DNA from: an uncultured virus (IMG/VR IMGVR_UViG_3300025610_000002) | Taxonomy: Duplodnaviria > Heunggongvirae > Uroviricota > Caudoviricetes | Virus record (IMG/VR): IMGVR_UViG_3300025610_000002 | Reading direction: 5' to 3' (one strand) | DNA: 64,000 nt | Part shown: piece after piece, positions 18,444-56,503 of the stretch | Position numbering within the stretch: the first letter of the stretch is position 1 | Layout of the letters: each line of letters starts with the position of its first letter | Notes under the pieces: model-generated | Seen by the model: only the letters and a program-made list of their open reading frames with translations | Database searches by the model: none | What the model was told of the DNA's origin: nothing | Translations under genes and position numbers: made by a program

Positions 18444-18447
18444 TACT

Positions 18448-23743: not shown

Positions 23744-23777
23744 GCGAACCACTACATTTTGATTAGGGGAATTGGTC

Positions 23778-28449: not shown

Positions 28450-30987
28450 ATGGCCTCTGCTGGTTTGATGGTGGGCAAGGTCAAAGCGCCTGCCTCGGAT
28501 GAAATTCTTTCTCTCTTTGAAAAGGTCCGAGTTGCTTACCTTTCAGCCAAAGAGGACAAGAAAGAATATGGCGGTCGTTGGAGAAACGCCTTAGAAGAAA
28601 TTGAAGAAGCCTTTGATTCTCTTTCCACTCTTGGAAAGGAATTGAAGAATTTCTTGGACGAAAGGCATCTTAACGACGATGATGCAAAGGACCCGGAAAG
28701 CACAACTGCTCGTATTATTTACGAGGCTATCAAAGACATGCGATTTGAATCCGACAAGGTGCAAGACCCATTCGCAGACCGTTTTAAGGGCGATGTGTTG
28801 GAAGCATTACTCAGCGATATTGGCATGATGGTGAAATTTATTCACTATGCTATTCGTTCCGATGATAAAGCATTATCGGGGAAGTTCTACGAATCTAAAG
28901 AGTTGCAACCGGATGAGATTACGAATGGTTTAGATGGTCTTGACTTAGAAGTTGATGATGTTCCTCTTTACATCATTGAACATTATGGCGACGATAAAGA
29001 TTCTAGAAAAGTAGAATCTCAATACAAGAAAGCCAAAGCAATTCTTGATGAAATGATTCTTTCCGAATCTTCCGAAGAGGAATTAGAAGAATTGGAAGAA
29101 GTGGATTTGCATAAGGCAGAAAAATCCGAAAAGGAAAAGGCCGTAAGTCAATTCATTATTCCAAACAAGCCGATGTATCGTATCTTTGATATTGACGACA
29201 TGAAGGAACTTAAAGGATTCAGCGGAGAATATGTTGTTCAAGAAAAATACGATGGTATGCGTATTCAAATTCATAAGATTGACAACAAGGTTCAAATTTT
29301 CTCCTACAACAAGAAAGACATTACAGAGAAGTGTTCTTCTCAAGTCAAGGAGTTGCAAAAGAAATCCTACGGTGATTGCATCCTTGATGCAGAACTGATT
29401 TTGTTTGATGGGGACAAGGCCCTCCATCGTGCCGATACAGTAGCCCATGTTTTCCAAAATAAATACAAAGAGGCTAGACTCCGAGCGCATGTTTTTGATA
29501 TTATGCGCCATGAGGCTCAAGACCTTACGGATACGCCTCTGCGTGACCGAATCAACATTCTCTTCAACAATTATGCCGTTAAGTCGTCTTCGGATTTGGT
29601 CTTCCCTTCAAAGAAGGATACGAGGATTGCTGACTCCTTGAAGGACATTGACGATTACGCCAAGGAAATTATGGACATGCCTACGGCAGAAGGCGTGGTC
29701 ATTAAGGACATTGAATCTACTTATTTCATCGGGACAAAGAAGAATCCAAAGTGGATTAAGTGGAAGAAGTTTGTTGATTTGGACATGTTGGTTTTGGATA
29801 AGAAATCAACAAAGTCGGGCTTGTATTCCTACTCTCTTGGCGCTGGTCCCGTTGCTGATGAAGACGAGGGCAAGCACATTGTAGAATACGAAGGCCGACG
29901 ATACATGAATGTTGGAAAGGCACTTAACACCAAGATTAAGGCAGATGTTGGACAAATCATTCGTGTGAAGGTTGACGAGGTTAGAGAAGATAACGGAAGA
30001 TTCACTCTTTATTCGGCTAAGGTTGTAGAGGTTCCCGAAGTGGAATTACCGGATAAGATTGTCACTTTACAGATGCTTTCGGGAGATACTAAGCCTTCTA
30101 TCAAATACAAGGCATTGTCCTTGAAGAAAGGCATTGGTATTACTGATGGTATTCATGGAACTGCAATGATTATTGCAAAGAGTATGGATGGGTTTACTAT
30201 TTACGGTTTCCAAGAGAATAATCTCATGGCTAAGAATGCTCTCCAAGACTTGGACATGTGGAAACAAGAAGCGGAGCAGATGATGAAAACAATGCAGAGT
30301 AATGTTCGCTCCGCCGTTATTCGTTATGTCAAGGACGCCACTTCTAGAAATAAAGAAGTGACAGTCAAAGAGTTGGATGAATTCTTATCCCGCAACTATG
30401 CTAATGAGTATTCTAGTTTGTTTGAGAACAAGCAAGACTTCCTTAAATTCCTTAAGGGGCAAAAAGAATTGAGTCATTTCTTGGATGCTAGTGAATACAT
30501 TACTGTGCGGGGCAACAAAGTCTTTGTTGATGAGAGTGTTTTACAAAAAGAAGAGGAGCCGTCTAAATTCAAGGTGTATCTTCGTAAAGATGGCAACTTG
30601 AATTTCTCTGTTCGTCATAAAGGTGAGAATCTTATGTGGACGATTGACTTACAGACCGACGATGACATTTTCTCTTTGTTCGGTAAAGCAGTCAAGTATC
30701 CTGCTGAGATTTCCGAACAACAAGATACTCATGACCTCTTAGATGAAGGCGATGTTACCGTTGGCGTTCAGCGACATGGATACCACGAATACATCTTGAA
30801 CGGTAACAAGTTTGAAACCAAACTACACTTCCGAGTTGTAGAGATGGATGGTGAGAAGACTTGGATTGCTTGGACGGGCTATGAGCAAGACCCTGTTGAC
30901 CCCGATACAGATGAAGGGGTATGGAATATCTATAATGATAAGTTCAAAAGTATAAAATTGGATAAAAATACGGATAAGGTTAAATAG
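28450..30987 (+). CDS. Multidomain ATP-dependent DNA ligase in the head module
   Basis: Ligase motifs QEKYDGMR (I), ILDAEL (III), HVFDIM (IIIa), EGVVIK (IV), WIKWKK (V); long acidic N-terminal and extra C-terminal domains. Confidence 0.9.
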   Translation: MASAGLMVGKVKAPASDEILSLFEKVRVAYLSAKEDKKEYGGRWRNALEEIEEAFDSLSTLGKELKNFLDERHLNDDDAKDPESTTARIIYEAIKDMRFESDKVQDPFADRFKGDVLEALLSDIGMMVKFIHYAIRSDDKALSGKFYESKELQPDEITNGLDGLDLEVDDVPLYIIEHYGDDKDSRKVESQYKKAKAILDEMILSESSEEELEELEEVDLHKAEKSEKEKAVSQFIIPNKPMYRIFDIDDMKELKGFSGEYVVQEKYDGMRIQIHKIDNKVQIFSYNKKDITEKCSSQVKELQKKSYGDCILDAELILFDGDKALHRADTVAHVFQNKYKEARLRAHVFDIMRHEAQDLTDTPLRDRINILFNNYAVKSSSDLVFPSKKDTRIADSLKDIDDYAKEIMDMPTAEGVVIKDIESTYFIGTKKNPKWIKWKKFVDLDMLVLDKKSTKSGLYSYSLGAGPVADEDEGKHIVEYEGRRYMNVGKALNTKIKADVGQIIRVKVDEVREDNGRFTLYSAKVVEVPEVELPDKIVTLQMLSGDTKPSIKYKALSLKKGIGITDGIHGTAMIIAKSMDGFTIYGFQENNLMAKNALQDLDMWKQEAEQMMKTMQSNVRSAVIRYVKDATSRNKEVTVKELDEFLSRNYANEYSSLFENKQDFLKFLKGQKELSHFLDASEYITVRGNKVFVDESVLQKEEEPSKFKVYLRKDGNLNFSVRHKGENLMWTIDLQTDDDIFSLFGKAVKYPAEISEQQDTHDLLDEGDVTVGVQRHGYHEYILNGNKFETKLHFRVVEMDGEKTWIAWTGYEQDPVDPDTDEGVWNIYNDKFKSIKLDKNTDKVK
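30973..30987 (+). promoter_or_regulatory. Putative late promoter (BRE/TATA) for the protease-MCP operon
   Basis: GATAAGGTTAAATAG about 30 nt upstream of the ATG at 31016. Confidence 0.5.
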
Positions 30988-31015
30988 TCAATTAGAGAAC
31001 GAGGAGTTGAGAAGA

Positions 31016-32185
31016 ATGTCTTCCATCGTTAAGGCTGAAACTCATGAGGATTTCAAAATCATCAAGAGCGACAAACTAATGATTGGGGGATATGCTTCTA
31101 TTGAAATGGTGGACAAGCAAAACGACCTCATTACCCTAGAGTCATTGAAAGAAGCCGTTAAAAAATTCATGGAGCAGAAGAGTTTTCGGAATGTAATGAC
31201 CAATCACTCAAATGTTCAAGTCGGAGAAGTAATTGACAGTTACAGAGATACAAGCGGGAGGCTATGGAAAACAGAAGTGGATGATGTTGGCTTCTTCGTA
31301 GTGATTAAACTCCGTGATGATATTGAAAAAGCAAAAGAAATTGGACGAGGCATTCGCAAAGGAACATTGAGGTCTTTTAGCATAGGAGGACAGGCGCTAC
31401 AGAAAGTGAAAAAGCGAAGTGAAGAGTTGGGCGAATACAACGAGATTAGCAAACTTGAACTTCATGAAGTGACCATCTGTGAAAAAGGAATCAACCCCGA
31501 AGCGAAATTTGACATTTTGAAACAACAAAAGGTGAAAGACATGACGAAATTGGAAAAAGCATTGGCGGAATTGGACACTCTTCTCGCAGAAGTGAACACT
31601 CTCCGTAAGGAAGAAGAAGAAGAACCCGCTATGGAAAACATGGGCGGAGAAGAAGAAATGATGGACATTGAAGCCTACGAGCGAGCAGAAAAGGGCGCAA
31701 AGCCTACTGTTGACGGTGGCTCTTTGGAAACCGGCGAGCCAGCAGACCTCGTTGTTGTGTCCGGTGGCCGACCAACCGGTTCCTCTCAAGCCGCAGAGGA
31801 AGGTCAGGTTAGCAAAGCCTTTGACAACGCTGAATTTGGAACGCTCAACCTCTCCAATGAGAACATTGAGAAGGCTTACGCACAATTCCGTGCCGAGCAG
31901 ATGGAAGAGTTGGCTCTCAAGAACCTTGAGTCCACCTTCGCTAAGAGATTTGAGGCTGAGATGGCTAGCCGTGAAGAAATGGTTGCTAAGTCGGAATACG
32001 ATGCTCAGTCCGAGATTGCTTCTCTCCGAGAGCAATTCTCTTCGCTCCGCAAGTCGTTAGAGAACGGCGCACAAGAAATTCGCAAGGCTAACGAAGCCGC
32101 CCAAGAAACCACGACCCTTTCCTTGGATGAGGTCGCTGAAATGTCTTGGAGCGACATTCACAAGATGGCCAGCGGAAACTATTGA
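31016..32185 (+). CDS. Prohead protease (HK97/XkdF-like) fused to scaffold
   Basis: IGGYASIEMVDKQND, MTNHS..VG, GTLRSFSIGG, LHEVTICEKGINP; acidic coiled-coil C-terminal half; directly upstream of MCP. Confidence 0.9.
   Translation: MSSIVKAETHEDFKIIKSDKLMIGGYASIEMVDKQNDLITLESLKEAVKKFMEQKSFRNVMTNHSNVQVGEVIDSYRDTSGRLWKTEVDDVGFFVVIKLRDDIEKAKEIGRGIRKGTLRSFSIGGQALQKVKKRSEELGEYNEISKLELHEVTICEKGINPEAKFDILKQQKVKDMTKLEKALAELDTLLAEVNTLRKEEEEEPAMENMGGEEEMMDIEAYERAEKGAKPTVDGGSLETGEPADLVVVSGGRPTGSSQAAEEGQVSKAFDNAEFGTLNLSNENIEKAYAQFRAEQMEELALKNLESTFAKRFEAEMASREEMVAKSEYDAQSEIASLREQFSSLRKSLENGAQEIRKANEAAQETTTLSLDEVAEMSWSDIHKMASGNY
31541..32185 (+). CDS. Nested in-frame scaffold protein (internal start)
   Basis: AAGGTGA RBS immediately upstream of in-frame ATG MTKLEKAL at the protease/scaffold boundary. 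Confidence 0.55.
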   Translation: MTKLEKALAELDTLLAEVNTLRKEEEEEPAMENMGGEEEMMDIEAYERAEKGAKPTVDGGSLETGEPADLVVVSGGRPTGSSQAAEEGQVSKAFDNAEFGTLNLSNENIEKAYAQFRAEQMEELALKNLESTFAKRFEAEMASREEMVAKSEYDAQSEIASLREQFSSLRKSLENGAQEIRKANEAAQETTTLSLDEVAEMSWSDIHKMASGNY

Positions 32186-32196
32186 GGTGATGAAAA

Positions 32197-33528
32197 ATGG
32201 GTTACATTAACACGATTAGAGATTTAGAAGCAGCAACTTACGGACTACCAAACTTTGGCGGCAACTCCTTGCTTAAGCAAGCAGGTGTTGTGCAGGGCCT
32301 TCACACGGCTCACGACATTGCCGATGCAAGCGCAAGCGGTGTTTCCGGTATTGGGACCACCACCGGCATGTATAATGTCATCTACGGACAAAAGGTTTGG
32401 TCTATGCTGAACCGTGAAGTCAACGCCCTCGCTATGCTCTCCAAGAGAGCCTACGCTTCCAGCGGTTGGCGAATCCTCAAGAGTCGTCCATTCGGTGGTA
32501 GCGCCGCTACTCTTACCTTGCAAAGCGACGGCACGGGCGGCGGCATTGGTTCCGACGACCCACAAGCAGACGAGATTGGTGGTGTTCCTGAGAACGCCGG
32601 TCTTTCTACTGCCGCTGACGGTCTTGGTAGCATGGCTCCAACCTACGCTCAACTCTTCATGAGTCCAAAGACTGTGGCTCATCAGTTTGACATTTCCGAA
32701 CTCGCTATGGAGATGGCTCAAATTGACGATGGCCTCGGTGACATTCGGGCTATCATCCGTGAAGACATGGGTAAGGCTCACGCCGAAGCACAGAACAAGA
32801 TGCTGGTTATGCCTCTTGAGTTCTACGGTGAATCTTCCGCTCTTGGCGACATTGAGCGAAACTACACCTCGCTCTTGAAGATTGTTTCCAGCCGAGCAGA
32901 GATTCTTGCTTTGGACGCTGGCGTTCTCGCTACTGACACGGCTTCCGCTACCAACGCCCTTGGTAAAATCTACGGCGAGGAGCGATTTACTGCCGCTTCT
33001 TTCCTTGACTCCGAAGTTGACTCCGGGACCTACGCCGCTTCTTCGGTTCGTGCTTTGACGCTGACCAAGATTAACGACATGATTCGCCGTCTGCGAGTCG
33101 CTGGTGGTTCGCCCAAGGTTATCCTTACGGGCTACGATACCATCCAAGCAATCGCTGACTTGCTCCAAGCACAAGAGCGATTCATGGACCGCAAGGAAGT
33201 TATTCCTACCGTGAACGGTGTGCGTGGTATCAAGGGTCAAGAAGTCGGTTTCCGTGTGGCTACCTACTACGACATTCCTCTTATCCCTGTGAAGGAAATG
33301 ACCTCCACCACCAACTCGGCTGACACCGGTATTAGCGACATGCTTTTCCTTGACACGGACCATCTTTGGCTCCAAGTCATGAAGCCTACGCAATACTTTG
33401 AAGACGGTATTTCCAACGGGAACCCATTCGGTGTGGGTCGCCTTGGGAACCAAGCCCTTTACCGCACCATTGCGGAAACGGGTTGTTCCTTCTTCTTGGG
33501 CCAAGGTAAGATTACGAACATCGCTTGA
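32197..33528 (+). CDS. Major capsid protein (HK97 fold)
   Basis: Follows the protease; strongest codon bias in the window; YGQKVWSMLNRE, PKTVAHQF, TYYDIPLIP, FLDTDHL patterns typical of archaeal tailed-virus MCPs. Confidence 0.9.
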   Translation: MGYINTIRDLEAATYGLPNFGGNSLLKQAGVVQGLHTAHDIADASASGVSGIGTTTGMYNVIYGQKVWSMLNREVNALAMLSKRAYASSGWRILKSRPFGGSAATLTLQSDGTGGGIGSDDPQADEIGGVPENAGLSTAADGLGSMAPTYAQLFMSPKTVAHQFDISELAMEMAQIDDGLGDIRAIIREDMGKAHAEAQNKMLVMPLEFYGESSALGDIERNYTSLLKIVSSRAEILALDAGVLATDTASATNALGKIYGEERFTAASFLDSEVDSGTYAASSVRALTLTKINDMIRRLRVAGGSPKVILTGYDTIQAIADLLQAQERFMDRKEVIPTVNGVRGIKGQEVGFRVATYYDIPLIPVKEMTSTTNSADTGISDMLFLDTDHLWLQVMKPTQYFEDGISNGNPFGVGRLGNQALYRTIAETGCSFFLGQGKITNIA

Positions 33529-33539
33529 GGTGATTAAGC

Positions 33540-33806
33540 ATGGCTTTTTCATCTACGATTACCGAAACCACGGTGTTTGGTAACAAGCGTGTTGCATACG
33601 GGACCTTCACCAATGGTGGTTCCGATACCGGCGGCGACATTGAAACCGGTTTGGACCGAGTGGATGCTATTCACCTCGTCCACTCCGGGTCTGCCGTTGT
33701 TGCTTCGGCTCCCGTTGTAAACGAAACCTTCCCATTGGCTAGCGGTGATGTGACCATTGTAACGGTCGCTGATGCTGACGGCTTTTGGATTGCTTACGGG
33801 GCTTGA
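33540..33806 (+). CDS. Small beta-rich virion protein (possible capsid decoration/cement)
   Basis: Right after MCP; Gly/Thr/Val-rich; GAGGTGA RBS. Confidence 0.65.
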   Translation: MAFSSTITETTVFGNKRVAYGTFTNGGSDTGGDIETGLDRVDAIHLVHSGSAVVASAPVVNETFPLASGDVTIVTVADADGFWIAYGA

Positions 33807-33818
33807 GGAGGGTCTTAA

Positions 33819-34136
33819 TTGGCGACCATCAAATTAAATGATGATTGCGAATGGGACTCTCGGCAACTTCAAGGTAAAGAAGGCAAATTTGAAGTTACGA
33901 AGGCTGAATCCATTGAGGTTTCAGCCTTCGTAGCCTCTCACTACTACGCAAGCCACCGCTTAGATGTGGTGTTTGCTGAAAGTGACCGAAAGGAATTGTC
34001 TTCTCTGCCCGATAGAGAGTTGTCTATGTTAGCGGTTGCATTACAATGCGAGCCTAGCGAAGTCGTCAATCTGCTTCTTCCTAAGAAGAAGGCCCCTCGT
34101 AAGAAGGCCTCTTCAAAGAAAGAGCAATCCGAATGA
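33819..34136 (+). CDS. Hypothetical protein with basic C-terminal tail
   Basis: TTG start after GGAGG. Confidence 0.7.
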   Translation: MATIKLNDDCEWDSRQLQGKEGKFEVTKAESIEVSAFVASHYYASHRLDVVFAESDRKELSSLPDRELSMLAVALQCEPSEVVNLLLPKKKAPRKKASSKKEQSE

Positions 34137-34141
34137 AGGAC

Positions 34142-34156
34142 AAAACCTTCATTAAT
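34142..34156 (+). promoter_or_regulatory. Putative promoter for the membrane/GTPase operon
   Basis: AAAACCTTCATTAAT about 35 nt upstream of the ATG at 34188. Confidence 0.5.
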
Positions 34157-34187
34157 GGATGATTGATAGTCCTCTTTAGGTGATAAC

Positions 34188-34511
34188 ATGCCCGACGCAT
34201 CTAGGTCTAGTGGAGTTTTGACTGCATCAGCAGTCATTGTAGCAAATCCGTGTAACTTGAAGAGTGTTCACATCACTTGCAGAGCCAACGGCGCTGACGA
34301 ATACATCTTGAAGATTTTTGATTCCGAGGATGCTACCTTAACAGGTAACACGGAATTGGTGCGATTTGTATTCAATGGCGACTCGTCTGCAAACAATGTG
34401 GAGGCTGACATGCACGGTGTCCTCGCTAGAGAAGGACTCTACGCTCAAGTTACTGCCCCTGCTTCACCCGATGCCGCTTCACACTTCGCTTTTAGTGTGG
34501 AGTTCAACTGA
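34188..34511 (+). CDS. Small beta-sandwich protein
   Basis: AGGTGA RBS; beta-strand pattern. Confidence 0.75.
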   Translation: MPDASRSSGVLTASAVIVANPCNLKSVHITCRANGADEYILKIFDSEDATLTGNTELVRFVFNGDSSANNVEADMHGVLAREGLYAQVTAPASPDAASHFAFSVEFN

Positions 34512-34520
34512 GGTGAAACA

Positions 34521-34919
34521 ATGGCGGCTTTGAACGCAGATACAAGGCTCATCATGACGATTCTTTTCGTTGGAGTGGTGAGTGGTGCGAATGTTTTCTT
34601 CTACGCTCAGTATGGTTCCAATTTCCCCTACACTCATTTGGCTCATGGAGTCCTATTCGGTCTTATTACTGTCGGTGCTATTCTCATCATGAAGGCAGTC
34701 AACGACTTGTTCTTGAACGACTACATTGAACAGGGCTTACTTGACCGAAGAATTGAGGCTTATTGGAAGTTGAAGACCAAGGAAGAACAACAGAGAAAGC
34801 GTATGCAAGAATCTCTCAAGACCTTCCAAACGGACTTTAACACGACGAGGGTTCCCGAAATTTCTACTTATAACAACGACAACGAATTAGGAGCAGAATT
34901 CTTAGCCTCTTTGCAATGA
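34521..34919 (+). CDS. Two-TM membrane protein with C-terminal coiled coil
   Basis: Hydrophobic segments LIMTILFVGVVSGANVFFY and GVLFGLITVGAILIM. Confidence 0.85.
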   Translation: MAALNADTRLIMTILFVGVVSGANVFFYAQYGSNFPYTHLAHGVLFGLITVGAILIMKAVNDLFLNDYIEQGLLDRRIEAYWKLKTKEEQQRKRMQESLKTFQTDFNTTRVPEISTYNNDNELGAEFLASLQ

Positions 34920-34928
34920 GGTGATTGA

Positions 34929-35147
34929 ATGCCTTTAGGGGATTTGATGGGTTTCTCGGACTCCGACTACGCCTACAATCAGCAGAGAGCGCACTCTGCT
35001 GACATGTTCTTCATGAAGATGAGGTTCTATTTTTGGGGTTCTTGTGCCGTTCTCTCATCGTTCCTTATCGGGAACATCATGGGCGTCTTTGACTTGAATG
35101 TAGTGGGTTGGATGGTAGACGCATTTACAGGTCTTTGGGGGCATTGA
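34929..35147 (+). CDS. Small membrane protein
   Basis: FYFWGSCAVLSSFLIGNIMGVF TM segment and amphipathic C-terminus. Confidence 0.8.
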   Translation: MPLGDLMGFSDSDYAYNQQRAHSADMFFMKMRFYFWGSCAVLSSFLIGNIMGVFDLNVVGWMVDAFTGLWGH

Positions 35148-35148
35148 T

Positions 35149-35811
35149 ATGTCCCTTCTTACCGGCTTTGCGGTAGTCATTACAGAAGCCGCTATTGCCT
35201 TCTACAAGAAAATACACGCAATCAATTTCGGAGTTTACGGTGCTACAATGGTTGGAAAGACGACACTACATCATCAATTACGAACAAGAGGTGAGGTCGC
35301 TCAAATTAAAGAGCGAACAGTAGGCTTACACAGACCCACAAGAAAGGTCGTCAAGATTGATGGGGAAGCCCATACATTACGCACTTCCGATGTTGGAGGA
35401 GAGTCCATCTATTGGAAGGAATGGATGAAGGACATTAAATCTAGAAAGGTGAAATACATCATCTTCATGATTGACCACCGACACTTGGATAGTGGTGCTA
35501 ATCTAGACCATCAACTCGCATGGAAATTTCTTGTAGACGGTATTTGTTCAACGAGATGGCCTAACGGTAAGAAGAAAAAAGAAGAGGATTACCCCTTAGC
35601 GATTGGCCTTTGGGCAAACAAATACGACATTTGGGGTGAAAAGCACAAACATGATGGCGAGATTGGCGACCATCCTATCTTCAAACCGTTTCAATACGGA
35701 ATGCAAAAACTAAATGAACGAGGAATACCGACACATAAATACATAGTTTCGGCTAAATCGCAACCCGAAATGGTTTATCGTGGCGTTACAACGATGATTA
35801 AGGACTACTGA
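35149..35811 (+). CDS. Arf/Sar1-like small GTPase (Ras superfamily)
   Basis: G1 GATMVGKTT, G2 RTVG, G3 DVGGE, YIIFMID, G4 WANKYD, G5 VSAK; hydrophobic N-terminal helix. Confidence 0.9.
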   Translation: MSLLTGFAVVITEAAIAFYKKIHAINFGVYGATMVGKTTLHHQLRTRGEVAQIKERTVGLHRPTRKVVKIDGEAHTLRTSDVGGESIYWKEWMKDIKSRKVKYIIFMIDHRHLDSGANLDHQLAWKFLVDGICSTRWPNGKKKKEEDYPLAIGLWANKYDIWGEKHKHDGEIGDHPIFKPFQYGMQKLNERGIPTHKYIVSAKSQPEMVYRGVTTMIKDY

Positions 35812-36449
35812 TGAGCATGTTTCAACAACCGAATTTGATTGGCGCACAATCGGCGCAGACTACAAATCCATTCTTGCCTCCTTTGACGCAAGCAAGAGCG
35901 CCGGGTCCTGTAGAGGAATACCAATATCGGACGCTTAAGCCCAAAAAAAGGCTCAAGGAGATTCGCCAAGTTTTGATGGCCGAGAAGAAAAAATTTTTAT
36001 TTTTGAAATACAGTTGGAAGTTCAATCTTCGTGACCGTTGCGTTGTTTGTGGTGTGCATCATGTTTGGGATGCTGGTGATTATTTGCGGCCTCCTATCCC
36101 TCTTAGTCATGTGGAAAAGGGTCGTCCAATGAAGGGAACCTACTGTCCAAAACACGCCGGTATTCACAAGCAAATGGAAATGCTACAACAACAAATCATG
36201 GCTGAAGAACATGGTCTTGACTTTAAGGCGTTTATTCCAAAGCCTAGAGTTCCGCAAGTCTTATCAAAAGGGCCGCTAACCACATTATCACAGGCCGATA
36301 TAGTTTCGCTAACGGGCGCTGGATGGGTGATTACAAGACCTCAAACAAAGAAGGACGAAACCCCTCCCGAAGAAGTAGTGAGATTAAGCCAAGAGATGCG
36401 TAATTCATTGGAAAGAATGCAATTTTTGATTGAAGGAAAAGGTGAATGA
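35811..36449 (+). CDS. Zinc-finger protein
   Basis: CVVC...YCPKH; Pro/Gln-rich N-terminus; coupled to the GTPase gene. Confidence 0.8.
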   Translation: MSMFQQPNLIGAQSAQTTNPFLPPLTQARAPGPVEEYQYRTLKPKKRLKEIRQVLMAEKKKFLFLKYSWKFNLRDRCVVCGVHHVWDAGDYLRPPIPLSHVEKGRPMKGTYCPKHAGIHKQMEMLQQQIMAEEHGLDFKAFIPKPRVPQVLSKGPLTTLSQADIVSLTGAGWVITRPQTKKDETPPEEVVRLSQEMRNSLERMQFLIEGKGE

Positions 36450-36450
36450 A

Positions 36451-37119
36451 ATGGTATTTGGTCCTAGTAACAACGACATTGTGGGTGCTATTGGTGCTTC
36501 TCAAGAGTCGCAATTCAAAACGGTGAACAATCTCCTGTCCTTGCAGGACAACCATGTTGAAGAATTCTTCCAATATCACGGGCATAGATTTCTTACCTCT
36601 TTAGAGAAGTTAATGGAAGATGTAACGGAAAGAGTGGTTTCGCAAATGTTGGCTAAGTTGGAATTCATTCAAGATTCTACTACGGGTAAGATTACTGTTC
36701 ACCCCGATTGCCTTAGGGAATACGAGAAGATTACCCAAGAAAACATTCAGTTGGACATTAATTCTATTATGCAATCAGCCATTGATACTGAAGTCGTCAA
36801 TCAAAGAAAGATGGCCAAGCAACAATACCTTGAATCTCAAGGCTTTTCCTCCCCTCAAATGGGTGGCGGTCAAATGGCTGGCCCTACCGCTGGCATGGCT
36901 TTAGCAGGAGTGACCGGGAACACTCAACAATACCAACAAATGCAGGGTGCTATGAACAACGGTAGCGGATACCCGGTCCCCCCTAACGGAACCGATGGCT
37001 ACGGTCGCCCGTATTGGATTGATGCTCAAGGCCAAATGTCTTACGAACCTCCTTCAAGTGGGCTTCATTTAGGTGCGGCAATCCAAAAGGGTGCGGCTTG
37101 GGCTAAATGGTTAATGTGA
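36451..37119 (+). CDS. Helical protein with Gln/Gly/Pro low-complexity region and C-terminal amphipathic helix
   Basis: GGTGA RBS; ends LGAAIQKGAAWAKWLM. Confidence 0.85.
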   Translation: MVFGPSNNDIVGAIGASQESQFKTVNNLLSLQDNHVEEFFQYHGHRFLTSLEKLMEDVTERVVSQMLAKLEFIQDSTTGKITVHPDCLREYEKITQENIQLDINSIMQSAIDTEVVNQRKMAKQQYLESQGFSSPQMGGGQMAGPTAGMALAGVTGNTQQYQQMQGAMNNGSGYPVPPNGTDGYGRPYWIDAQGQMSYEPPSSGLHLGAAIQKGAAWAKWLM

Positions 37120-37130
37120 GTTGATTTGAT

Positions 37131-38462
37131 TTGGTTGAATACAAAGTCCAAATCGGCAACGCTATTCTAGACGCAACTGCGTTTGGTAAGAGTAAGATTG
37201 TCAAGAATATTTTTCAGTCCTATTTAGAAGGCTACACGCCCGGAGATAAGGACGAGGATTTTGATAATCAAATTGAAAAATTAGAGGTTGTCAATAGAGG
37301 AACGAGTTACGAAGACAATGTTAGACCCGTTTTAGAACTTCTAGATGAGGAACTTGAAAGATTAGAAACTAAAGATATTGGTAAAACTTCTATCAAGTTT
37401 GACAAGAAAAAATTTGCTCTTGATTCCTCGGAGGATGAAGAAGGTAAATCCTTCGCCATTGATACAGACCAATTTGATTTTTCCCTTAGAGATTTAACCG
37501 ACGATAGCAAAATCAATCAAATCCTAGGGTTCGGGGAATACACTAGAGAGTTTGAAGATTTAACTTCAGTTAAGGATATTACAAAGGAAATTAATGAAAG
37601 GCTAGATAGAAGTTTCCCAACTCTCTTCAACTATGTTCAAGAGAATTTAGTAGTGAAGAAAGAAGGAGAATCTACTGTTCTGTATTTTGATGATGGTGAT
37701 TTCACTATGAATGTCTTGAGAGAGTTTTCTCCTTCTCGCTTGTCTTTCAAGAGAGAGAAAGGTGGGTCTAAATCGGCTGAATTTTCTTCGTATTTGCGTT
37801 TGGTTGAATTAGAAGAGAAGGTTTCGGATTTCCGGGATACTCCTACGGAACTTGTAAAGGAGATTCAAAAGAGTTGGAGAAATGAATTCTACGAACTTTC
37901 CATTGAAGGAAAGAGAAACGAACTCCCAATTGCTCGTCTAAAGGATATTAAAGAAGGCAGTAGAGAAGCCGCAGAACTATTCATCAAGACTATTTTCAAT
38001 GGTGATAGGGCAATTAAAATCTTTAATGACGCCTACAATGTTTCCAATGAGATTGTTGATGTTAAGTTGACTTTCCCCAACGAAATATTGTGTGACCCGG
38101 AAGGAGAAACAGAAGGCGCTCAAGCATTCGCTAGTAGTGCCAAGGTTTTGGACGCCCCAATCATGGTGGAAAGAATTACTTCCGGAACCATGACTTGGAC
38201 CTCTACGGATAGACCCGGTATGGAAGGCTACATTAGAGATATTGACCCATACGATAGAGGCGCTAGAGTGGACGGCGAGAGAGTCAAGGTCATGGGAGAG
38301 TTACCTCCCTACTTCCCTCAAGGCATGACAAGAGGCGATTCGGAAAAGGTCATTGATATTCTTGAGGATTTCTTGTATTCAACTGCGGCCAATTATTTGG
38401 AGTTGAAAGAAGCAATTCAAGAAGCATTGGCGAAATTACCCGACACAACTGAGGAGGAGTAA
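37131..38462 (+). CDS. Acidic hypothetical protein (443 aa)
   Basis: Long ORF, TTG start; no motif recognised. Confidence 0.8.
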   Translation: MVEYKVQIGNAILDATAFGKSKIVKNIFQSYLEGYTPGDKDEDFDNQIEKLEVVNRGTSYEDNVRPVLELLDEELERLETKDIGKTSIKFDKKKFALDSSEDEEGKSFAIDTDQFDFSLRDLTDDSKINQILGFGEYTREFEDLTSVKDITKEINERLDRSFPTLFNYVQENLVVKKEGESTVLYFDDGDFTMNVLREFSPSRLSFKREKGGSKSAEFSSYLRLVELEEKVSDFRDTPTELVKEIQKSWRNEFYELSIEGKRNELPIARLKDIKEGSREAAELFIKTIFNGDRAIKIFNDAYNVSNEIVDVKLTFPNEILCDPEGETEGAQAFASSAKVLDAPIMVERITSGTMTWTSTDRPGMEGYIRDIDPYDRGARVDGERVKVMGELPPYFPQGMTRGDSEKVIDILEDFLYSTAANYLELKEAIQEALAKLPDTTEEE

Positions 38463-38464
38463 CT

Positions 38465-39586
38465 TTGCCTGTATCATCATCCCCAAGCGACTACACCAAC
38501 ATTGATGTTGACTACTCGCAAGGAAAGGGCTACTACACGGACAAATCTGCTATTGCAGACCTCCTGCAAATCCCTGCCTTTACTTCAGTTACCAATCCTA
38601 CTGATGCTCAGATTGGTAGTATTATCAAGCGTGTAGAGGGGATAATTGACGATAAAGTAGGGCGTTCTTACAGACCAATTATTTGGAAGGACGAGTTTAG
38701 GGATTTTGAATTTACTCGCCATCCTATTCAATCCTATTACGGCGGGTATGTTGGATTTGTCCAACTCAATCAAATGAAGATTAGAAAGATTATCAGTTTG
38801 CAAGTTTGGGAAGGCAACAACTACAGAGAGTTAGCCTCTGCTCAAGCCAGCATTGATTTGGATACGAGCGGCTACAACAACATCAATACGATTACCATTC
38901 AGTTACCCAATTCCGGTGACTCTTGGGTGTTGAAATACAACGGGCATACTGACGCTCCTGCCGCTTCTGCTTCTTTTAATTCCTCCTTTGGTGCAAAGAC
39001 CACGGCCAAAGAAATCGCCGCACTCATCAATGAAGAGTTCCCCTCCAAGACGGCTCAGTTTACAGGAGCAACTACAGAGAAGGCGCTTCTCTCTACTCCC
39101 AATTCCTACAACATCTCGGACTTTTTCTACGCCTACACCGACAAACAGGACGGAACGAAGATTCACATTTCTAGTCTGTTGGAGGGAGAAGATGGCTCCG
39201 ACTGCACTATTACAGTTGCAGACCAAGCAGGAAAGGATTCGTCAACTACGGTTGAAGACTTTACTGATAAACAAGAGATGCGTCGTCTTGGTGATTTTTG
39301 GACGATGGACAACGATGGTAGAATCTTCTTCCTCAAGCGTTATCCTTACCACAACAAGAATTCAGTCATTGTCAACTTTATTGCCGGTGATGGTCGTGTT
39401 CCTTCTGCTATCCACGAAGCGGCTACGAAACTTGTAGCGGCTGAGATTCTTCGCCACGACGACCAAACCATTCTCATTGCCGAAACGGGAGCCAATATCT
39501 CTACCAAAGAGAAGTATGACATTCTGCGAAAGGAAGCAATGGAGATTCTTGACGGCAAGAAGGACCTTGTGTATTTGATTGATTGA
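38465..39586 (+). CDS. Putative head-tail adaptor with a large insertion
   Basis: IKRVEGIIDDKVGRSY and V.V.FIAG..RVPSAIHEAATKLVA ends resemble gp15/gp6-type adaptors; position before tail genes. Confidence 0.65.
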   Translation: MPVSSSPSDYTNIDVDYSQGKGYYTDKSAIADLLQIPAFTSVTNPTDAQIGSIIKRVEGIIDDKVGRSYRPIIWKDEFRDFEFTRHPIQSYYGGYVGFVQLNQMKIRKIISLQVWEGNNYRELASAQASIDLDTSGYNNINTITIQLPNSGDSWVLKYNGHTDAPAASASFNSSFGAKTTAKEIAALINEEFPSKTAQFTGATTEKALLSTPNSYNISDFFYAYTDKQDGTKIHISSLLEGEDGSDCTITVADQAGKDSSTTVEDFTDKQEMRRLGDFWTMDNDGRIFFLKRYPYHNKNSVIVNFIAGDGRVPSAIHEAATKLVAAEILRHDDQTILIAETGANISTKEKYDILRKEAMEILDGKKDLVYLID

Positions 39587-40293: not shown

Positions 40294-40317
40294 GGTTTGT
40301 TTGTAGGAAGTGGGATT

Positions 40318-42288
40318 ATGGCAAGACCAAATATATTTTTAGGAAGCGGTGCATCGGTAACTTTTGTTCCCGAAGTGGATATTTATTTGAAGCCTACCTC
40401 TTTGAACGCAGATAAAAATGAACTCCTTATCCATTCGGATTTTACTGCTAACTTTGACTTGGTTAATGACCTGTATGTGGGTTGTGTTTTAGAGTTCTAC
40501 GATAATGGAACGCTTACAACCACTCACAGAATTACTTCCAATACCGGGACGAGGATTACCTTTCACCCCGCACAAACAGGAATTACTTTGGATACGACAA
40601 ATGATTACTACAGGCTCAAGGGATATGGTGCGCCTTGTCCCGCTAAAAAAGTCCTAGGTGGCTCAAACATTTACACCGCAGAAGTCACCAATTTTACCTT
40701 TGCTAGCGATACTAAAACGGACTATAGCGGGGATTGGATTTACTTCCACGAAATTCAAACAAGCGATGCGGGGGCAGAAAGAGCAGTTGTTGTTTGGTGG
40801 AATACTACAGGAGCCGAAACCGTTCCTAGTCATGGATTAGCAGGCACTCCTCTTGTTGTAGAAGTTGATATTTCCGACTCCGGACTTACCACTCAAGAAG
40901 AATACATTGCGGCTACTGTTGCGGCTATCAATGCAGAAAGTGTGGACTTAACCGCTAGTAGAAGCAACAACATTTTGATTATCACCAATACTTATGGTGG
41001 ACCCACTACTGATGCAAACTCTAGTAATGCGAGCCACATTACACATGAAACCGCTACGCAAGGTTCTACTGTTCTCTCGTCTTCTACTGCCAAAAAACTC
41101 AACTCGGACAATTGGTTAGGTATCGTTGAGTCTTTGACTTTCCCTAGTGTTGATGTTGAATTCAAACAACAGAACCTCTTTGTTGGTGGTAGTCGTAACT
41201 ATACCTACCAATACAAGGGGATTGAAACGGCAGGAAACGCCAGCATCGGCATTGTTGCAAATCATGGTGCTTGGCTTTACTATTTCTTCGGCAAGTGTGA
41301 TTCTATCTCCGCAACTCTTCTTTCTTCCACGAATCCGGCGAGTGATTTCGCAGGCGCACTTACCGGTGAAAACAAGTTTTACCTTAACGGTGCTTCAATT
41401 ACTGACACCGGGCCTCTCTTCTATCGTAGCATTGACAACGAAATGACTCCTCCCGTTCTTAGAGGACAAGATACCTATACGGACTTACAACAATTGGACC
41501 CCCCTACTATTGACGCTGATGGCCATATCACCAAAGCCATCACTTACACCTTTACCGAACAGGAGGGCGACGACTTGCCTTCTTTCGCTCTTGAACAGGT
41601 CTTCTCTAAGTTGCCAAGTTCAAACACTTACAGAACCAGCACGGACAACGACAACGAAGACACCAACTTCGTTCTCATTGCTACAGGGAACAGAGTCAAC
41701 ACTCTTACCATGACTGCTAACGAGAATGAAGAACTGAAAATGACGATGGATTGCATGCCTCGCAAGGTTCACAACTTGGAAAAAACCGAATCCTATGAGG
41801 CTAGAAGAGGCGTTACAAACGAAACCGAATTCATCAACTACTATAGTGAAGATGCTTGTTTGGAACCATTCTTCTTCTCTAGTGGTTCCATTAGTATGTT
41901 TGGTCAAGACTTCATGAGAATTACAAACTTTACCTTGACTATGAACAATACCTTGACGGATAAGCGATTTATTGGTATTGGTAGCAAGACCGTAAAGGAT
42001 GCTATTCCTGCTCAAAGAACTTACGAGTTGACCTTCTCCGCTCTCGTTACTGACGATATGTTGTTCAATGAATTGAAGAATCAACACGAAACTACAGGAA
42101 CGGTAATTGACCTTATCTTTGACAAGGGTAGCGAAGAACAAATCCGATTGAAGTTTGACGACTACTTCTTGACGACGAACACTTGGCCAATTCCCGAAGA
42201 CAAGGGGGCCGTGACTGTTGAGGCAACCATTATCCCACGCTCTTTGAGTTCTTGCACGGTCAAGACTCATTGGATTTTGCAGGGGTGA
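40318..42288 (+). CDS. Major tail (tube) protein with inserted domains
   Basis: DLPSFALEQ, GNRVNTLTM, PFFFSSGSI, ITNFTLTMNNTL, AQRTYELTF resemble tail-tube proteins; followed by chaperones and tape measure. Confidence 0.75.
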   Translation: MARPNIFLGSGASVTFVPEVDIYLKPTSLNADKNELLIHSDFTANFDLVNDLYVGCVLEFYDNGTLTTTHRITSNTGTRITFHPAQTGITLDTTNDYYRLKGYGAPCPAKKVLGGSNIYTAEVTNFTFASDTKTDYSGDWIYFHEIQTSDAGAERAVVVWWNTTGAETVPSHGLAGTPLVVEVDISDSGLTTQEEYIAATVAAINAESVDLTASRSNNILIITNTYGGPTTDANSSNASHITHETATQGSTVLSSSTAKKLNSDNWLGIVESLTFPSVDVEFKQQNLFVGGSRNYTYQYKGIETAGNASIGIVANHGAWLYYFFGKCDSISATLLSSTNPASDFAGALTGENKFYLNGASITDTGPLFYRSIDNEMTPPVLRGQDTYTDLQQLDPPTIDADGHITKAITYTFTEQEGDDLPSFALEQVFSKLPSSNTYRTSTDNDNEDTNFVLIATGNRVNTLTMTANENEELKMTMDCMPRKVHNLEKTESYEARRGVTNETEFINYYSEDACLEPFFFSSGSISMFGQDFMRITNFTLTMNNTLTDKRFIGIGSKTVKDAIPAQRTYELTFSALVTDDMLFNELKNQHETTGTVIDLIFDKGSEEQIRLKFDDYFLTTNTWPIPEDKGAVTVEATIIPRSLSSCTVKTHWILQG

Positions 42289-42862: not shown

Positions 42863-43071
42863 TGAGAGATGCGGTTAGAAGAGGGCCAAAAGACCCTCAA
42901 ACTGCTTCTCTCATGATTACCTACACTCTTAGCAAAGCCTTAGCCATTAGCCCTATAGAAATCATGAAAATGCCTGCTACAATGGTTATGGACTTCCTAT
43001 ACATACATCGGAACTTTGAAGAATTGAAGGCTGATACAATAGAACAGGAAATGAAGAAGGTGAAGAAGTGA
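42859..43071 (+). CDS. Frameshift extension of the tail chaperone (gpT-like)
   Basis: In the -1 frame of the upstream ORF; LAISPIEIMKMP pattern. Confidence 0.7.
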   Translation: MMRDAVRRGPKDPQTASLMITYTLSKALAISPIEIMKMPATMVMDFLYIHRNFEELKADTIEQEMKKVKK

Positions 43072-44417
43072 GTGATGTAATCCGTCAAGCATCCGATGAG
43101 GCTACCCGTGCGGCTTCTGTTTTTACTGAACTTTCTAGAGCAATCGGAAATACCGATTACTCGGCTGAACAATTCAATGGCCGGATGCAAGGCTTTGCTA
43201 AAGTAATGGCCTACACTAACAAGATTGGATACGCAACTCTACCGTTTTACTTTCGTCTTAAAAACAGAGTTGAAACGAGCCTATTGGCTATTGGTAAATT
43301 TTCTGAAGCATTGAAGGGACAAAACGACCAAGTGGGGCTTTTGGGTAAATCATTCAAGGCTCTAGGAAGCCAATACCAAAAGGCAAAATCAATCTTGGGT
43401 CCTTCGTTCTCTAGAACACTACGAACTTCTCAAGATAGAATGAGGCCACCGCAATACGACACATCGGTATCGCAAAAAAGCAAAAAACAAATGGCGATGG
43501 AATCTTTAGATTATTTGTCATTTGGACTTGCAGGAAAAAGTGCTAAGTTGGGCGCATCCATTATGGGATTCATAAAAATGCAAAATAAGGGTAGAGTGTT
43601 TAATCAAAAATTATACAAGATAGGAGCAAAAGCCAATGAGAAGGTAAACGAATACTATACTAAAATCAAAGGCGTTCCGGTTAGAAAAATAATGCTAAGT
43701 TTAGGTTCTTTCTTGTTATTCGGTCTAAAAGCCTTAATTATTCTGACTTTAGCAATGACCGCATTGATTATTTTATTCAAGAGTAAGGCGGTTCAAAATA
43801 CCGTCCGAAGAATTATGGATATACTAATGGAGGTTGGTTCTGTCATCTTTGATGCATTGAAGACGGTCTTTGACGGATTTATGCTCATCTTCAAGGCTCT
43901 GATGGGCGGAGAGGGCTTCATGAAATCTCTAGGGATGGCTCTAAAGGGATTGGGTAAAATTTTCTTTGGGATTCTCAAGGGCCTATTTGGAGTTGCATTC
44001 GTAGTTTTGAAGGGATTGTTGAAGGTTGTAATTGGGGCCATCTACGATGTTGGGTCATATATTGTCCAAGGGTTAGCGAATGCATTTGGTTTCGTGGCTA
44101 AGGCTGGTAAATTTATAGGGAATATTATGATGCCCGGAACTCCTTTTGCAATGGCGAGAGGAGGTGTTTCTTCCGGGGGTATGACTCTTGTAGGAGAAGA
44201 AGGACCGGAACTTGTGCGGCTCCCTACCGGTGCTAGAGTTTACTCAAATCAACAATCTAGGAGAATGGCTACCGGGACTACGAACAACATCACGGTAAAT
44301 GTCCAAGGACGCATTGGTGCTTCCGATACGGAACTACGACAAATTGCTTCTAAGATTGGTCAAATGATAAACAAAGAAGTGAACAGAACGACTTCTTCTA
44401 GAGGGACCTTGGGGTGA
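43068..44417 (+). CDS. Tail tape measure protein
   Basis: Helical, hydrophobic repeats; C-terminal MARGGV..GGMTLVGEEGPELV motif; follows the chaperone pair. Confidence 0.85.
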   Translation: MSDVIRQASDEATRAASVFTELSRAIGNTDYSAEQFNGRMQGFAKVMAYTNKIGYATLPFYFRLKNRVETSLLAIGKFSEALKGQNDQVGLLGKSFKALGSQYQKAKSILGPSFSRTLRTSQDRMRPPQYDTSVSQKSKKQMAMESLDYLSFGLAGKSAKLGASIMGFIKMQNKGRVFNQKLYKIGAKANEKVNEYYTKIKGVPVRKIMLSLGSFLLFGLKALIILTLAMTALIILFKSKAVQNTVRRIMDILMEVGSVIFDALKTVFDGFMLIFKALMGGEGFMKSLGMALKGLGKIFFGILKGLFGVAFVVLKGLLKVVIGAIYDVGSYIVQGLANAFGFVAKAGKFIGNIMMPGTPFAMARGGVSSGGMTLVGEEGPELVRLPTGARVYSNQQSRRMATGTTNNITVNVQGRIGASDTELRQIASKIGQMINKEVNRTTSSRGTLG

Positions 44418-55562: not shown

Positions 55563-56465
55563 ATGTATTTGGGTGTTGCTGGTGCTTGCGCTGAACAGAA
55601 AGCAAATGCCTCCACTACCGCCTATACTTTAGAAGGCATCACCTTCCAAGATACGGGTGACTTCGTTGGGCAATACACAGTTGACTTGGGAATCGGCACG
55701 GGGAAGTTGGTGATTATTGACCTTGCAGGGGACTTCGTTGAAGCCTATGACTTTGATGATGCGAGTATGCCAGCCGTTAACGGAAGTGCTAATGAAACTG
55801 ATAACCCCGGCCTCTCAAATCCCCGTGGGTTCACCTTTGGTGACAACGGTAATTACTACTATGTGGGTGGAACTGCCAGTCCTTGGGTTAGGCGGCTCGC
55901 CCTTAGCACCGCATATGATGTGAGTAGTGCTGGAACTGCACAGAACATTAGCAGTTCATTACATAATGCTGGTGTGCAGGGTATCGCATTCAACGACAAT
56001 GGAACAAAACTCTTCATTGCAGACCAAGGATTCGTCAAGACTGTCACGCTTACAACTGCTTGGGATTTGAGTGCTGGTTCAACCTCAACGCACACAATTA
56101 GTAGCACAACTGATAGTGACGGTGACTCAATCAACAATCTCTCCTGTATTCGCTTCAACGCTGATGGAACAAAGATGTTCCTTTCTTACCGCACTTCATT
56201 CGGGGACCAAGCACAAACCGCCAATCATCCTAAAATTGCTGAGTTTGACCTAAGCACGGCATATACGGTGTCAACCAAAACATTCGTCCGTCACTTAGAT
56301 GTTCACCCTTACCTTGGTCTTTATGACACAACGCCCATTCCCCGACCCACATTCATTGGTGGGTTTGATTGGAACTCCGATGGAACTCAACTGTTTATGT
56401 CGGCGGTTCACCAAGACGCTTCCGATAGTGTTGGTCCGAAGATTTTGAGATACGCTCTTTCTTGA
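55563..56465 (+). CDS. Beta-propeller protein, probable receptor-binding subunit
   Basis: Repeats F.D/N.DGTKLF/MF and LSTAYDVS/LTTAWDLS. Confidence 0.75.
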   Translation: MYLGVAGACAEQKANASTTAYTLEGITFQDTGDFVGQYTVDLGIGTGKLVIIDLAGDFVEAYDFDDASMPAVNGSANETDNPGLSNPRGFTFGDNGNYYYVGGTASPWVRRLALSTAYDVSSAGTAQNISSSLHNAGVQGIAFNDNGTKLFIADQGFVKTVTLTTAWDLSAGSTSTHTISSTTDSDGDSINNLSCIRFNADGTKMFLSYRTSFGDQAQTANHPKIAEFDLSTAYTVSTKTFVRHLDVHPYLGLYDTTPIPRPTFIGGFDWNSDGTQLFMSAVHQDASDSVGPKILRYALS

Positions 56466-56503
56466 TTCCGCAAGGTTTATTTTCTACACTTGAATGTCGG
56501 TGT

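Follow-up and report, generated by a model that had tools for sequence, protein, structure and literature searches.

A cassette of six small genes, one of which codes for a small GTPase, lies at positions 34142 to 37119 of a 64,000-nucleotide (nt) stretch of DNA from an uncultured tailed virus (Caudoviricetes; IMG/VR record IMGVR_UViG_3300025610_000002). This whole stretch is referred to here as the window. The cassette was first described in a reading made from the letters of the DNA without database searches (the sequence-only reading), and the six open reading frames (ORFs) given there are all present. Together with the spacer in front of them they are as follows:

34135-34187, + strand: spacer upstream of p107, candidate archaeal promoter (A/T box and Shine-Dalgarno (SD)-like motif)
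34188-34511, + strand: p107, 107 amino acids (aa) (ORF list)
34521-34919, + strand: p132, 132 aa, membrane protein with two transmembrane (TM) segments (ORF list, hydropathy)
34929-35147, + strand: p72, 72 aa, protein with one TM segment (ORF list, hydropathy)
35149-35811, + strand: small GTPase, 220 aa (motifs, model, profile)
35811-36449, + strand: Cys/His protein, 212 aa, probably zinc-binding (conserved Cys and His residues)
36451-37119 (alternative TTG start at 36430), + strand: p229/p222, Gln/Gly-rich protein (homologue starts)

The six ORFs are tightly packed, with gaps of 9, 9 and 1 nt followed by a 1-nt overlap and then a 1-nt gap, and the five genes from p132 onwards, which form the core of the cassette, together occupy approximately 2.6 kb. 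Because homologues of the last gene begin with MxFG(T/P)SN, its start is most likely the ATG at 36451 (222 aa) and not the TTG at 36430. Upstream the block is flanked by genes for a prohead protease and the major capsid protein (MCP), and downstream by tail tube and tape-measure-like genes. The sequence-only reading had placed it between the MCP and head-tail genes. The MCP side of this placement holds, but the genes at 37131-39586, which follow the cassette, belong to no named family of Pfam or PHROG.

The window has the ORF map of a tailed virus, with a large terminase (18355-19875), portal (23772-25409), prohead protease (31007-32185), MCP (32197-33528), a protein with a tail tube domain (40297-42288) and a tape-measure-like protein (43068-44417). 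An ATP-dependent ligase (28450-30987) sits within the structural block, and there are archaeal-type replication and repair genes, these being ERCC4/XPF with a helix-hairpin-helix domain, a PD-(D/E)XK nuclease and a UvrD helicase. The GTPase has 390 relatives at E≤0.01, including gp088 of Poseidoniales virus YSH_150918 (75% identity), and four of these relatives carry the Joint Genome Institute (JGI) automatic label 'GTPase SAR1 family protein'. A ligase inside the structural module is a feature of magrovirus groups A and B according to excerpts of Philosof et al. (PMC5434244). Because of this position of the ligase and the GTPase relative in a Poseidoniales virus, the window is identified by its gene content as a magrovirus, one of the tailed viruses that infect Marine Group II archaea (Poseidoniales).

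Conservation of the cassette was examined in two sets of viruses. In the 80 loci to which the GTPase led, the genes keep the order protease-MCP-...-p107-p132-p72-GTPase-Cys/His-p229 wherever the contig reaches, the misses falling at contig ends as read from the table. A second sample was anchored on the capsid gene and chosen independently of the GTPase, consisting of the 80 loci that matched this gene best (MCP at least 73% identical). Here the six genes are present in order in 36/36 loci that extend 4.5 kb or more past the MCP on its downstream side; the other loci are either too short (43) or have no MCP match to the profile (one).

The second set is a divergent one, made up of 82 loci on viral contigs reached via the distant GTPases P0134 and P0136 (81 and 4 relatives, respectively). 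The GTPase in these is approximately 30% identical to that of the window-like viruses, and the gene order is two TM proteins, the GTPase, a homologue of the Cys/His protein and a homologue of the helical Gln-rich protein. Their products are a protein with one or two TM segments, a second TM protein of 73-99 aa with a single segment, the GTPase, a Cys/His protein of 256-340 aa and a Gln/Gly/Met-rich protein of 190-270 aa, with an extra 2-TM protein of approximately 80 aa in 63 of the 82 loci. With hhalign, homology between the two sets was found for the Cys/His proteins (97.1%, E 4.9e-11) and for the helical domain of p229 with the second gene after the divergent GTPases (95.8%, E 7.8e-9), mismatched control pairs giving 0.1-10%. 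No homologue of p107 was found within 7 kb of the divergent GTPases.

Upstream of the block, a giant ORF is found in 37 of the divergent loci, a GP88-like gene in 14, a group II chaperonin in eight and a C5 methylase in three, and directly downstream there is a helix-turn-helix (HTH) gene in 78/82 loci. The HTH gene has a homologue in the window at 12447-13091, 22 kb upstream of the cassette (34% identity, E 2.5e-40). The composition of the core is thus kept at a different position on a homologous backbone, from which it follows that the five genes moved as a block. This is the strongest evidence that they make up one functional unit which is not intrinsically a head or neck component. As judged from gene content and order, the five-gene core forms a self-contained magrovirus module with p107 outside it, and in the window-like lineage p107 and a conserved A/T box stand in front of this module. 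The sequence-only reading had treated the whole block as one operon, which as a conserved gene unit is borne out for the five core genes but not for p107. It had also named in advance the loss of synteny in relatives as a finding that would count against it, and synteny was found to persist even at approximately 30% GTPase identity and in a changed position.

Between the GTPase and the Cys/His gene there is a slot, empty in the window (at 35811), which in 33 of the 80 loci (L003, L009, L011, L019, L025 and L028 among them) holds one to three small unrelated ORFs of 97-204 aa with no Pfam family. All 25 distinct inserted ORFs of at least 90 aa start with the N-terminal tag MWxx(I/V)(L/I)K.

By its motifs and predicted fold, 35149-35811 encodes a genuine small GTPase. 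The motifs quoted in the sequence-only reading (RTVG, DVGGE, IIFMID, ANKYD and SAK) are all present, the full series being G1 GATMVGKT at residues 31-38, G2 T57, G3 DVGGE at 81-85, W92, IIFMIDHRH at 104-112, G4 NKYD at 157-160 and G5 SAK at 201-203. G1 to G5 are invariant across 27 aligned relatives (68-100% identity), and the GTPase and the MCP are the best-conserved genes of the block with 70-100% identity. A hydrophobic N-terminal helix had also been proposed. In agreement with this, residues 2-22 form a hydrophobic stretch (for the first 19 residues, the Kyte-Doolittle mean is 1.7 and the mean Eisenberg hydrophobicity 0.65), and the AlphaFold2 (AF2) model has a helix at 3-22. This model (predicted local distance difference test, pLDDT, 70; predicted template modelling score, pTM, 0.70) shows a Ras-like fold.

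At the position of the catalytic Gln, Glu is found in 57/57 unique window-like sequences, while the 58 unique sequences of the divergent set have Gln (35), Glu (8), Asp (6) or His (2), the motif not being found in 7. The earlier argument that, with Glu at this position, a neighbour may act as GTPase-activating protein (GAP) is consequently weak, Glu being specific to one clade.

The affinity of the GTPase within the superfamily is less sharply drawn. Foldseek with the model gave at least 500 matches at E≤0.001, those shown being all small GTPases or G-alpha, with G-alpha, Ras and Rab in the top ranks. A structural search against representatives gave Arf6 (Z 16.1), Loki RagA-like (15.7), SR-beta (15.5) and Sar1 (15.1), with Arl13B also among the top rows (Z 16.1-14.7), a second SR-beta chain at 14.6 and Ras/Rab at 13-14.5. 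These matches extend over residues 22-220, and rows within 1 Z are to be taken as tied, many lying within 1-2 Z. In Pfam, the window protein gave sub-cut-off rows of 12-18 bits for MMR_HSR1, Roc (18 bits), SRPRB (15.4 bits, cut-off 25), Ras and G-alpha, and no row at E≤1 for Arf (PF00025). Across 31 family members, SRPRB matches 20 and Arf 15 at E≤1, Arf having the best E of any family (1.9e-15). Moreover, six distant relatives, found by the family profile at E 1.5e-12 to 8.1e-4, do pass Pfam Arf with 27-57 bits (cut-off 22.3).

The 27-member GTPase profile found only 78 matches at E≤0.001 among 1.84 billion representative proteins, and for this reason the family is considered narrow and isolated. 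The 78 are mostly fragments of the same family, with about 20 full-length distant relatives of 20-34% identity, all of which have a hydrophobic N-terminal stretch. When distant relatives are included in the profile, the best match is Arl3 (5di3_A, E 3.3e-11, full length), followed by 8oun_A and 8oum_A (titled 'GTP-binding protein') and then by mini-Gq, EngA, Rab33B and Ras at about 1e-8, where the Ras and Rab matches cover the N-terminal half only. P0158, P0169 and similar Arf-passing relatives are singletons on short contigs whose profile found only eight proteins, and neither P0158 nor P0169 had a match in the viral contigs. Another of these distant relatives, P0195, comes from a bacterial metagenome-assembled genome (MAG) of Anaerolineae. 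A tblastn search of the GTPase against a phage collection, from which near-identical records are possibly absent, gave no match. The nearest known family therefore appears to be Arf/Arl/Sar1/SR-beta, at a very great divergence. Given the small margins and the order of the Foldseek matches, the protein is filed as nearest to the Arf family and not as a tested member of it. The sequence-only reading had called it Arf-like, which agrees with its nearest relatives by profile and fold, but the window protein itself lies below the Pfam Arf cut-off.

As for the partner proteins, p107 is a soluble protein with 12 invariant columns among relatives, and in window-like viruses the block always begins with its gene. 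Its only Pfam row worth naming is a sub-threshold one for DUF7112 (E 0.06), and a PDB profile search gave no match to set beside the beta-sandwich fold proposed in the sequence-only reading. For p132, hydropathy supports the two TM segments previously reported (approximately residues 9-29 and 39-59), and these are followed by a charged helical tail of approximately 70 aa which is probably cytoplasmic. The single TM segment reported for p72 is likewise supported (approximately residues 31-59), and the N-terminal part of the protein carries a conserved RAHSAD motif. Pfam gave no family for p72, and neither Pfam nor PHROG gave one for p132; p107, p132 and p229 have only unrelated sub-threshold Pfam rows.

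The Cys/His protein has the pattern C77-x2-C80-x31-C112-x2-H115, and the conservation of these four residues upholds the CxxC/CxxH finger of the sequence-only reading. Across 33 sequences drawn from the two deeply separated virus sets, C77, G81, T110, C112 and H115 do not vary; C80 is conserved. On this pattern the protein is probably zinc-binding. Its AF2 model (pLDDT 70, pTM 0.49) has no Foldseek match at E≤0.001, and there is no Pfam family at E≤0.1. PDB profile searches of p107, p229 and the Cys/His protein gave nothing better than E 0.14. The ESM Atlas has no model for the Cys/His protein or p229, with feature matches of ≤0.86 or absent.

The last protein, p229, has a conserved helical domain at approximately residues 29-139 (numbered from 36430), followed by a Gln/Gly/Met-rich linker and, at the C-terminus, a conserved YPxPPxGxDxYGRPYWxD...YEPP stretch and the tail QKGAAWAKWLM. 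The tail noted in the sequence-only reading is indeed conserved in the window-like set, and both C-terminal elements are specific to that set. However, the tail does not qualify as an amphipathic helix as had been proposed, its hydrophobic moment of 0.23 being reached by 29% of shuffles and the tail being absent from the divergent set. In the window, the stretch YPxPPxGxDxYGRPYWxDxxGQxxYEPP lies at 36979-37080 (approximately residues 181-208). A resemblance of YGRPYWxD...YEPP to the core of WW domains was considered and dropped, as there was no Pfam WW match at E≤0.1.

The spacer at 34135-34187 is a candidate archaeal promoter for the block. It contains the A/T box CATTAA (34150-34155, at -38 from the p107 ATG) and the SD-like motif AGGTGAT (34178-34184). 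A box of the form [AT]TTAA[AGT] is present at -70 to -26 of the p107 start in 29/43 unique upstream regions of relatives, mostly at -48 to -36, and an SD-like motif in 39/43. In 200 shuffles the box count averaged 6.7 and never exceeded 14; these being related sequences, the comparison yields no probability and is only a hint. The TATA-like motif of the sequence-only reading thus has a measure of support. A scan of 33400-37400 for sigma-70 promoters and intrinsic terminators, which is ill-suited to archaeal promoters, gave a site count not above that of shuffles. An inverted repeat, GAAGG/CCTTC (34135-34150), spans the stop of the upstream ORF. Among relatives, inverted repeats at or before the A/T box show compensating variants (GAAGG/CCTTC, GAAAC/GTTTC, AACCC/GGGTT and CTCTAT/ATAGAG), and the repeat may form a hairpin that acts in regulation or termination and is coupled to the promoter-like box.

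Metatranscriptome contigs over the cassette are limited to a few pieces of 151-261 nt (34042-34192, 34340-34659, 34781-35103 and 36321-36581), with long pieces spanning 31.0-33.9 kb in four runs. As these data are contigs only, they give no ranking of genes, gaps prove nothing, and DNA was possibly present in the libraries.

A number of further features were observed around the cassette. An RNA hairpin at 33896-33932 (13-bp stem, 11-nt loop, dG -31.7, z -4.3) lies approximately 90 nt past the p88 stop and within the putative ORF 33819-34136. The RNA-library contigs over protease-MCP-p88 (four runs) all stop at 33882-33904, one having adapter at 33904. These RNA contigs hint weakly at a transcript that ends or is processed here. 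Compensated changes are seen in the hairpin in the close relative L009, and a perfect stem of at least 9 bp is present in only 6 of 50 MCP-p107 spacers. The ORF itself (105 aa, TTG start) has 29-67% identity to its counterparts and is missing from many relatives, so it may not be a gene in every lineage. Directly 3' of the cassette, the 443-aa gene at 37131-38462 is highly variable, with 98-100% identity only in the five loci of the window's near-identical group that reach that far, 28-30% identity in four other loci and no tblastn match in the remaining ones. At the end of the tail-gene block there is a protein with an HMGL-like (pyruvate carboxyltransferase-type) domain (56462-57343, Pfam E 6.7e-19), which may be an auxiliary metabolic gene; judging by N-terminal sequence only, a lookalike ORF lies near the cassette in locus L085 (10941-11789).

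With respect to function, TM-like segments in the late (+) block are confined to p132, p72 and the GTPase, plus the tape-measure-like gene. The architecture of p132 and p72 fits that of holins, which are small, late, and have one to three TM segments and a charged C-terminus. Among the 84 window ORFs scanned (20 + 64) there were no matches to the PHROG lysis category, which is consistent with the earlier statement that no holin or endolysin is recognisable. Because the parts fit, no lysis gene is recognisable and the only small late TM proteins are those of the cassette, late remodelling or breaching of a membrane is favoured. It is tentatively suggested, by analogy, that the cassette works as a GTP switch anchored at the membrane and that, late in infection, it remodels or breaches the membrane of the host to release the virus. 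The two TM proteins would be placed in the host cytoplasmic membrane, and the N-terminal helix of the GTPase would keep the GTPase at that membrane as well. In its GTP form the GTPase would bind the two soluble partners, of which the Cys/His protein would probably act as hydrolysis regulator or effector. The late assembly would then deform or breach the membrane, allowing tailed virions to leave a host without a known wall polymer, and it would be for the GTP cycle to determine the time or place of this membrane step. What the analysis shows is which parts there are, how well they are conserved and where membrane segments are predicted; deformation, lysis and timing are inferred. It is conceivable, if rather doubtful, that the cassette is more specifically a portable egress or vesiculation machine, driven by an Arf/Sar1-like switch that has membrane receptors of its own and two soluble partners dedicated to it.

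Several points weigh against a role in release. The function is proposed from sequence, models and analogy. The genome is approximately 92 kb long and the window holds 64 kb of it, so a lysis gene may lie outside the window. Neither p132 nor p72 has a Pfam or PHROG holin match, although holins are very diverse and such a miss does not exclude them. The homology of the TM proteins between the two virus sets is doubtful, the hhalign match being weak for p132 (19.5%, E 1.2e-3) and not significant for p72 (3.2%). The GTPase falls below every curated cut-off, with 18 bits for MMR_HSR1 (cut-off 21.9) and 20.4 bits for TIGR00231 (cut-off 42.5). By Pfam the Cys/His protein is neither OapC-like nor ArfGAP-like, and its fold search was empty. 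The inserts present in 33 of 80 loci mean that the GTPase and Cys/His genes need not be translationally coupled. Finally, the block in the window-like lineage lies inside the head-to-tail morphogenesis genes, a position that fits assembly as well as egress.

This last point leads to an assembly or packaging platform, in which the cassette would tether capsid and tail morphogenesis, or a replication-assembly zone, to the membrane with the GTPase as checkpoint. In the window-like viruses the block always has the MCP on one side and the conserved genes of the downstream structural region on the other, and in the divergent set it abuts a block leading to terminase-side genes, both of which accord with such a role. 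However, the block shifts relative to the head genes with its composition intact, and we know of no tailed-virus assembly pathway that needs a small GTPase or membrane proteins. An assembly platform is held to be unlikely.

A vesiculation or trafficking device similar to ArvABC or Sar1 would produce vesicles or compartments for non-lytic release, decoys or a virus factory. The Arf/Sar1/SR-beta-like affinity of sequence and fold is in its favour, and the parts are of the same kind as ArvA plus its Zn-ribbon partner as described in excerpts of PMC10927574. Against this, there is no OapC (PF09845) in the cassette proteins or the nearest virus record (G001), and DUF2073 is not among the Pfam hits. 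Excerpts of PMC5434244 report magrovirus reads mostly in the <0.2 µm free-particle fraction, which is neutral with regard to vesicles. Such a device is judged quite unlikely.

Membrane proteins switched by a GTPase could also block entry or alter receptors, providing superinfection exclusion or surface remodelling. The small size of the membrane proteins, the mobile and self-contained nature of the unit and the adjoining slot with variable accessory genes would suit this. Yet the cassette is present in every capsid-anchored locus with room for it (36/36) and the GTPase is among the best-conserved genes of the block, whereas exclusion genes, to our knowledge, are usually patchy, making this role improbable. 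Lastly, virion-borne ejection proteins forming a membrane conduit for DNA entry would agree with the position of the block in the structural module here, its TM segments and its low-complexity Gln/Gly regions, but the divergent block lies outside the head genes and no GTPase is known to us among ejection proteins, so that this is very improbable indeed.

No published work linking magroviruses or Poseidoniales viruses with a GTPase was found, and the cassette does not appear to be described in the literature searched. A mention of 'GTPase' is found neither in the main texts of PMC5434244, PMC10160649, PMC11706807, PMC7318539 and PMC8651126 nor in their text supplements; further files of PMC10160649 and PMC11706807 may hold gene tables. 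The cassette may bear on a gap, namely the exit route of tailed archaeal viruses, where no magrovirus gene has been tied to release. In marine virus abundance, magroviruses rank third behind SAR11 phages and cyanophages (Philosof et al., PMC5434244, as excerpted), and given this abundance a conserved module acting on membranes would bear on archaeal mortality in the ocean. If the cassette is indeed a GTPase-driven egress or vesiculation machine, it would be without known precedent as a GTP-timed release system among viruses of prokaryotes and would provide a mechanism for the exit of tailed archaeal viruses from wall-less hosts. With a core of only approximately 2.6 kb, it is small enough for this to be tested by expression in a model archaeon.

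The cassette can be compared with a number of known systems. It resembles holin/antiholin cassettes in its small proteins with one or two TM segments, charged C-terminal tail and late region, but unlike these it has no holin family match and no endolysin, and we are aware of no GTPase in the holin systems described. The ArfGAP finger is CxxC-x16-CxxC with a following Arg. The Cys/His spacing C77-x2-C80-x31-C112-x2-H115 differs from it, and there is no ArfGap Pfam match and no fold match, so that an ArfGAP-like or OapC-like character of the zinc protein finds no support in either Pfam or fold searches. With regard to the SRP (signal recognition particle) receptor, no SR-alpha-like partner is seen in the block, and the SRPRB score is below the cut-off as given above.

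The closest functional parallel in archaea is ArvABC (OapABC). Excerpts of PMC10927574 describe Haloferax ArvA as an Arf-like GTPase with an N-terminal amphipathic helix which acts in vesicle formation with ArvB and the Zn-ribbon protein ArvC; knockout of ArvA abolishes vesicle formation and ArvC limits it. ArvABC acts on the cell membrane, and in both systems an Arf-like small GTPase with an N-terminal helix stands beside a protein that binds zinc, or in the cassette probably does, and that is suggested to be a regulator. In contrast to ArvABC, the partners in the cassette are two TM proteins and a Gln-rich protein. PF09845 was absent from the cassette proteins and the nearest virus record but was found in a Haloferax control, and no DUF2073-type protein (ArvB, according to the same excerpts) was among the Pfam hits of the cassette proteins. 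As only 78 of 1.84 billion proteins matched the profile, a close tie to the large ArvA family is considered unlikely by match count. From these sequence and model comparisons, the cassette is not to be regarded as a copy of ArvABC. The same excerpts place ArvA vesiculation GTPases in Euryarchaeota and DPANN. The statement in the sequence-only reading that Arf/Sar1 GTPases are typical of eukaryotes and Asgard archaea omits these, as well as the bacterial P0195, and so holds only in part. The cassette would itself show Arf-type GTPases with private partner sets beyond eukaryotes and Asgard archaea, and to the ArvABC example of membrane work driven by a GTPase in Euryarchaeota it would add one from a virus.

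With the Arf family (Arl3 5di3_A, Arf6 3lvr_E, Sar1 1m2o_B and SR-beta 2fh5_B, with 8oun_A/8oum_A), the GTPase shares the Ras-like G domain, a predicted N-terminal membrane-directed helix, a G3 of the DxGG type with a conserved Trp 11 residues past the Asp, and an hhFhhD strand after switch II, and it is in this family that the best full-length profile match and, by small margins in the structural search, the best fold matches are found. It differs from Arf in scoring below the Pfam cut-off, in having Glu for the catalytic Gln in this clade, in its G5 SAK (as in Ras/Rab), in the basic insert WPNGKKKK before G4 and in the hydrophobic and not amphipathic nature of its N-terminal helix, and its gene is viral. 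Virus-encoded switches of the Ras superfamily are also found in giant eukaryotic viruses, an example being the mimivirus Rab 5xc5_A (fold match Z 14.5). However, the giant-virus GTPases are close copies of host Rab, whereas the magrovirus GTPase is deeply divergent, is accompanied by dedicated neighbours and belongs to a tailed archaeal virus.

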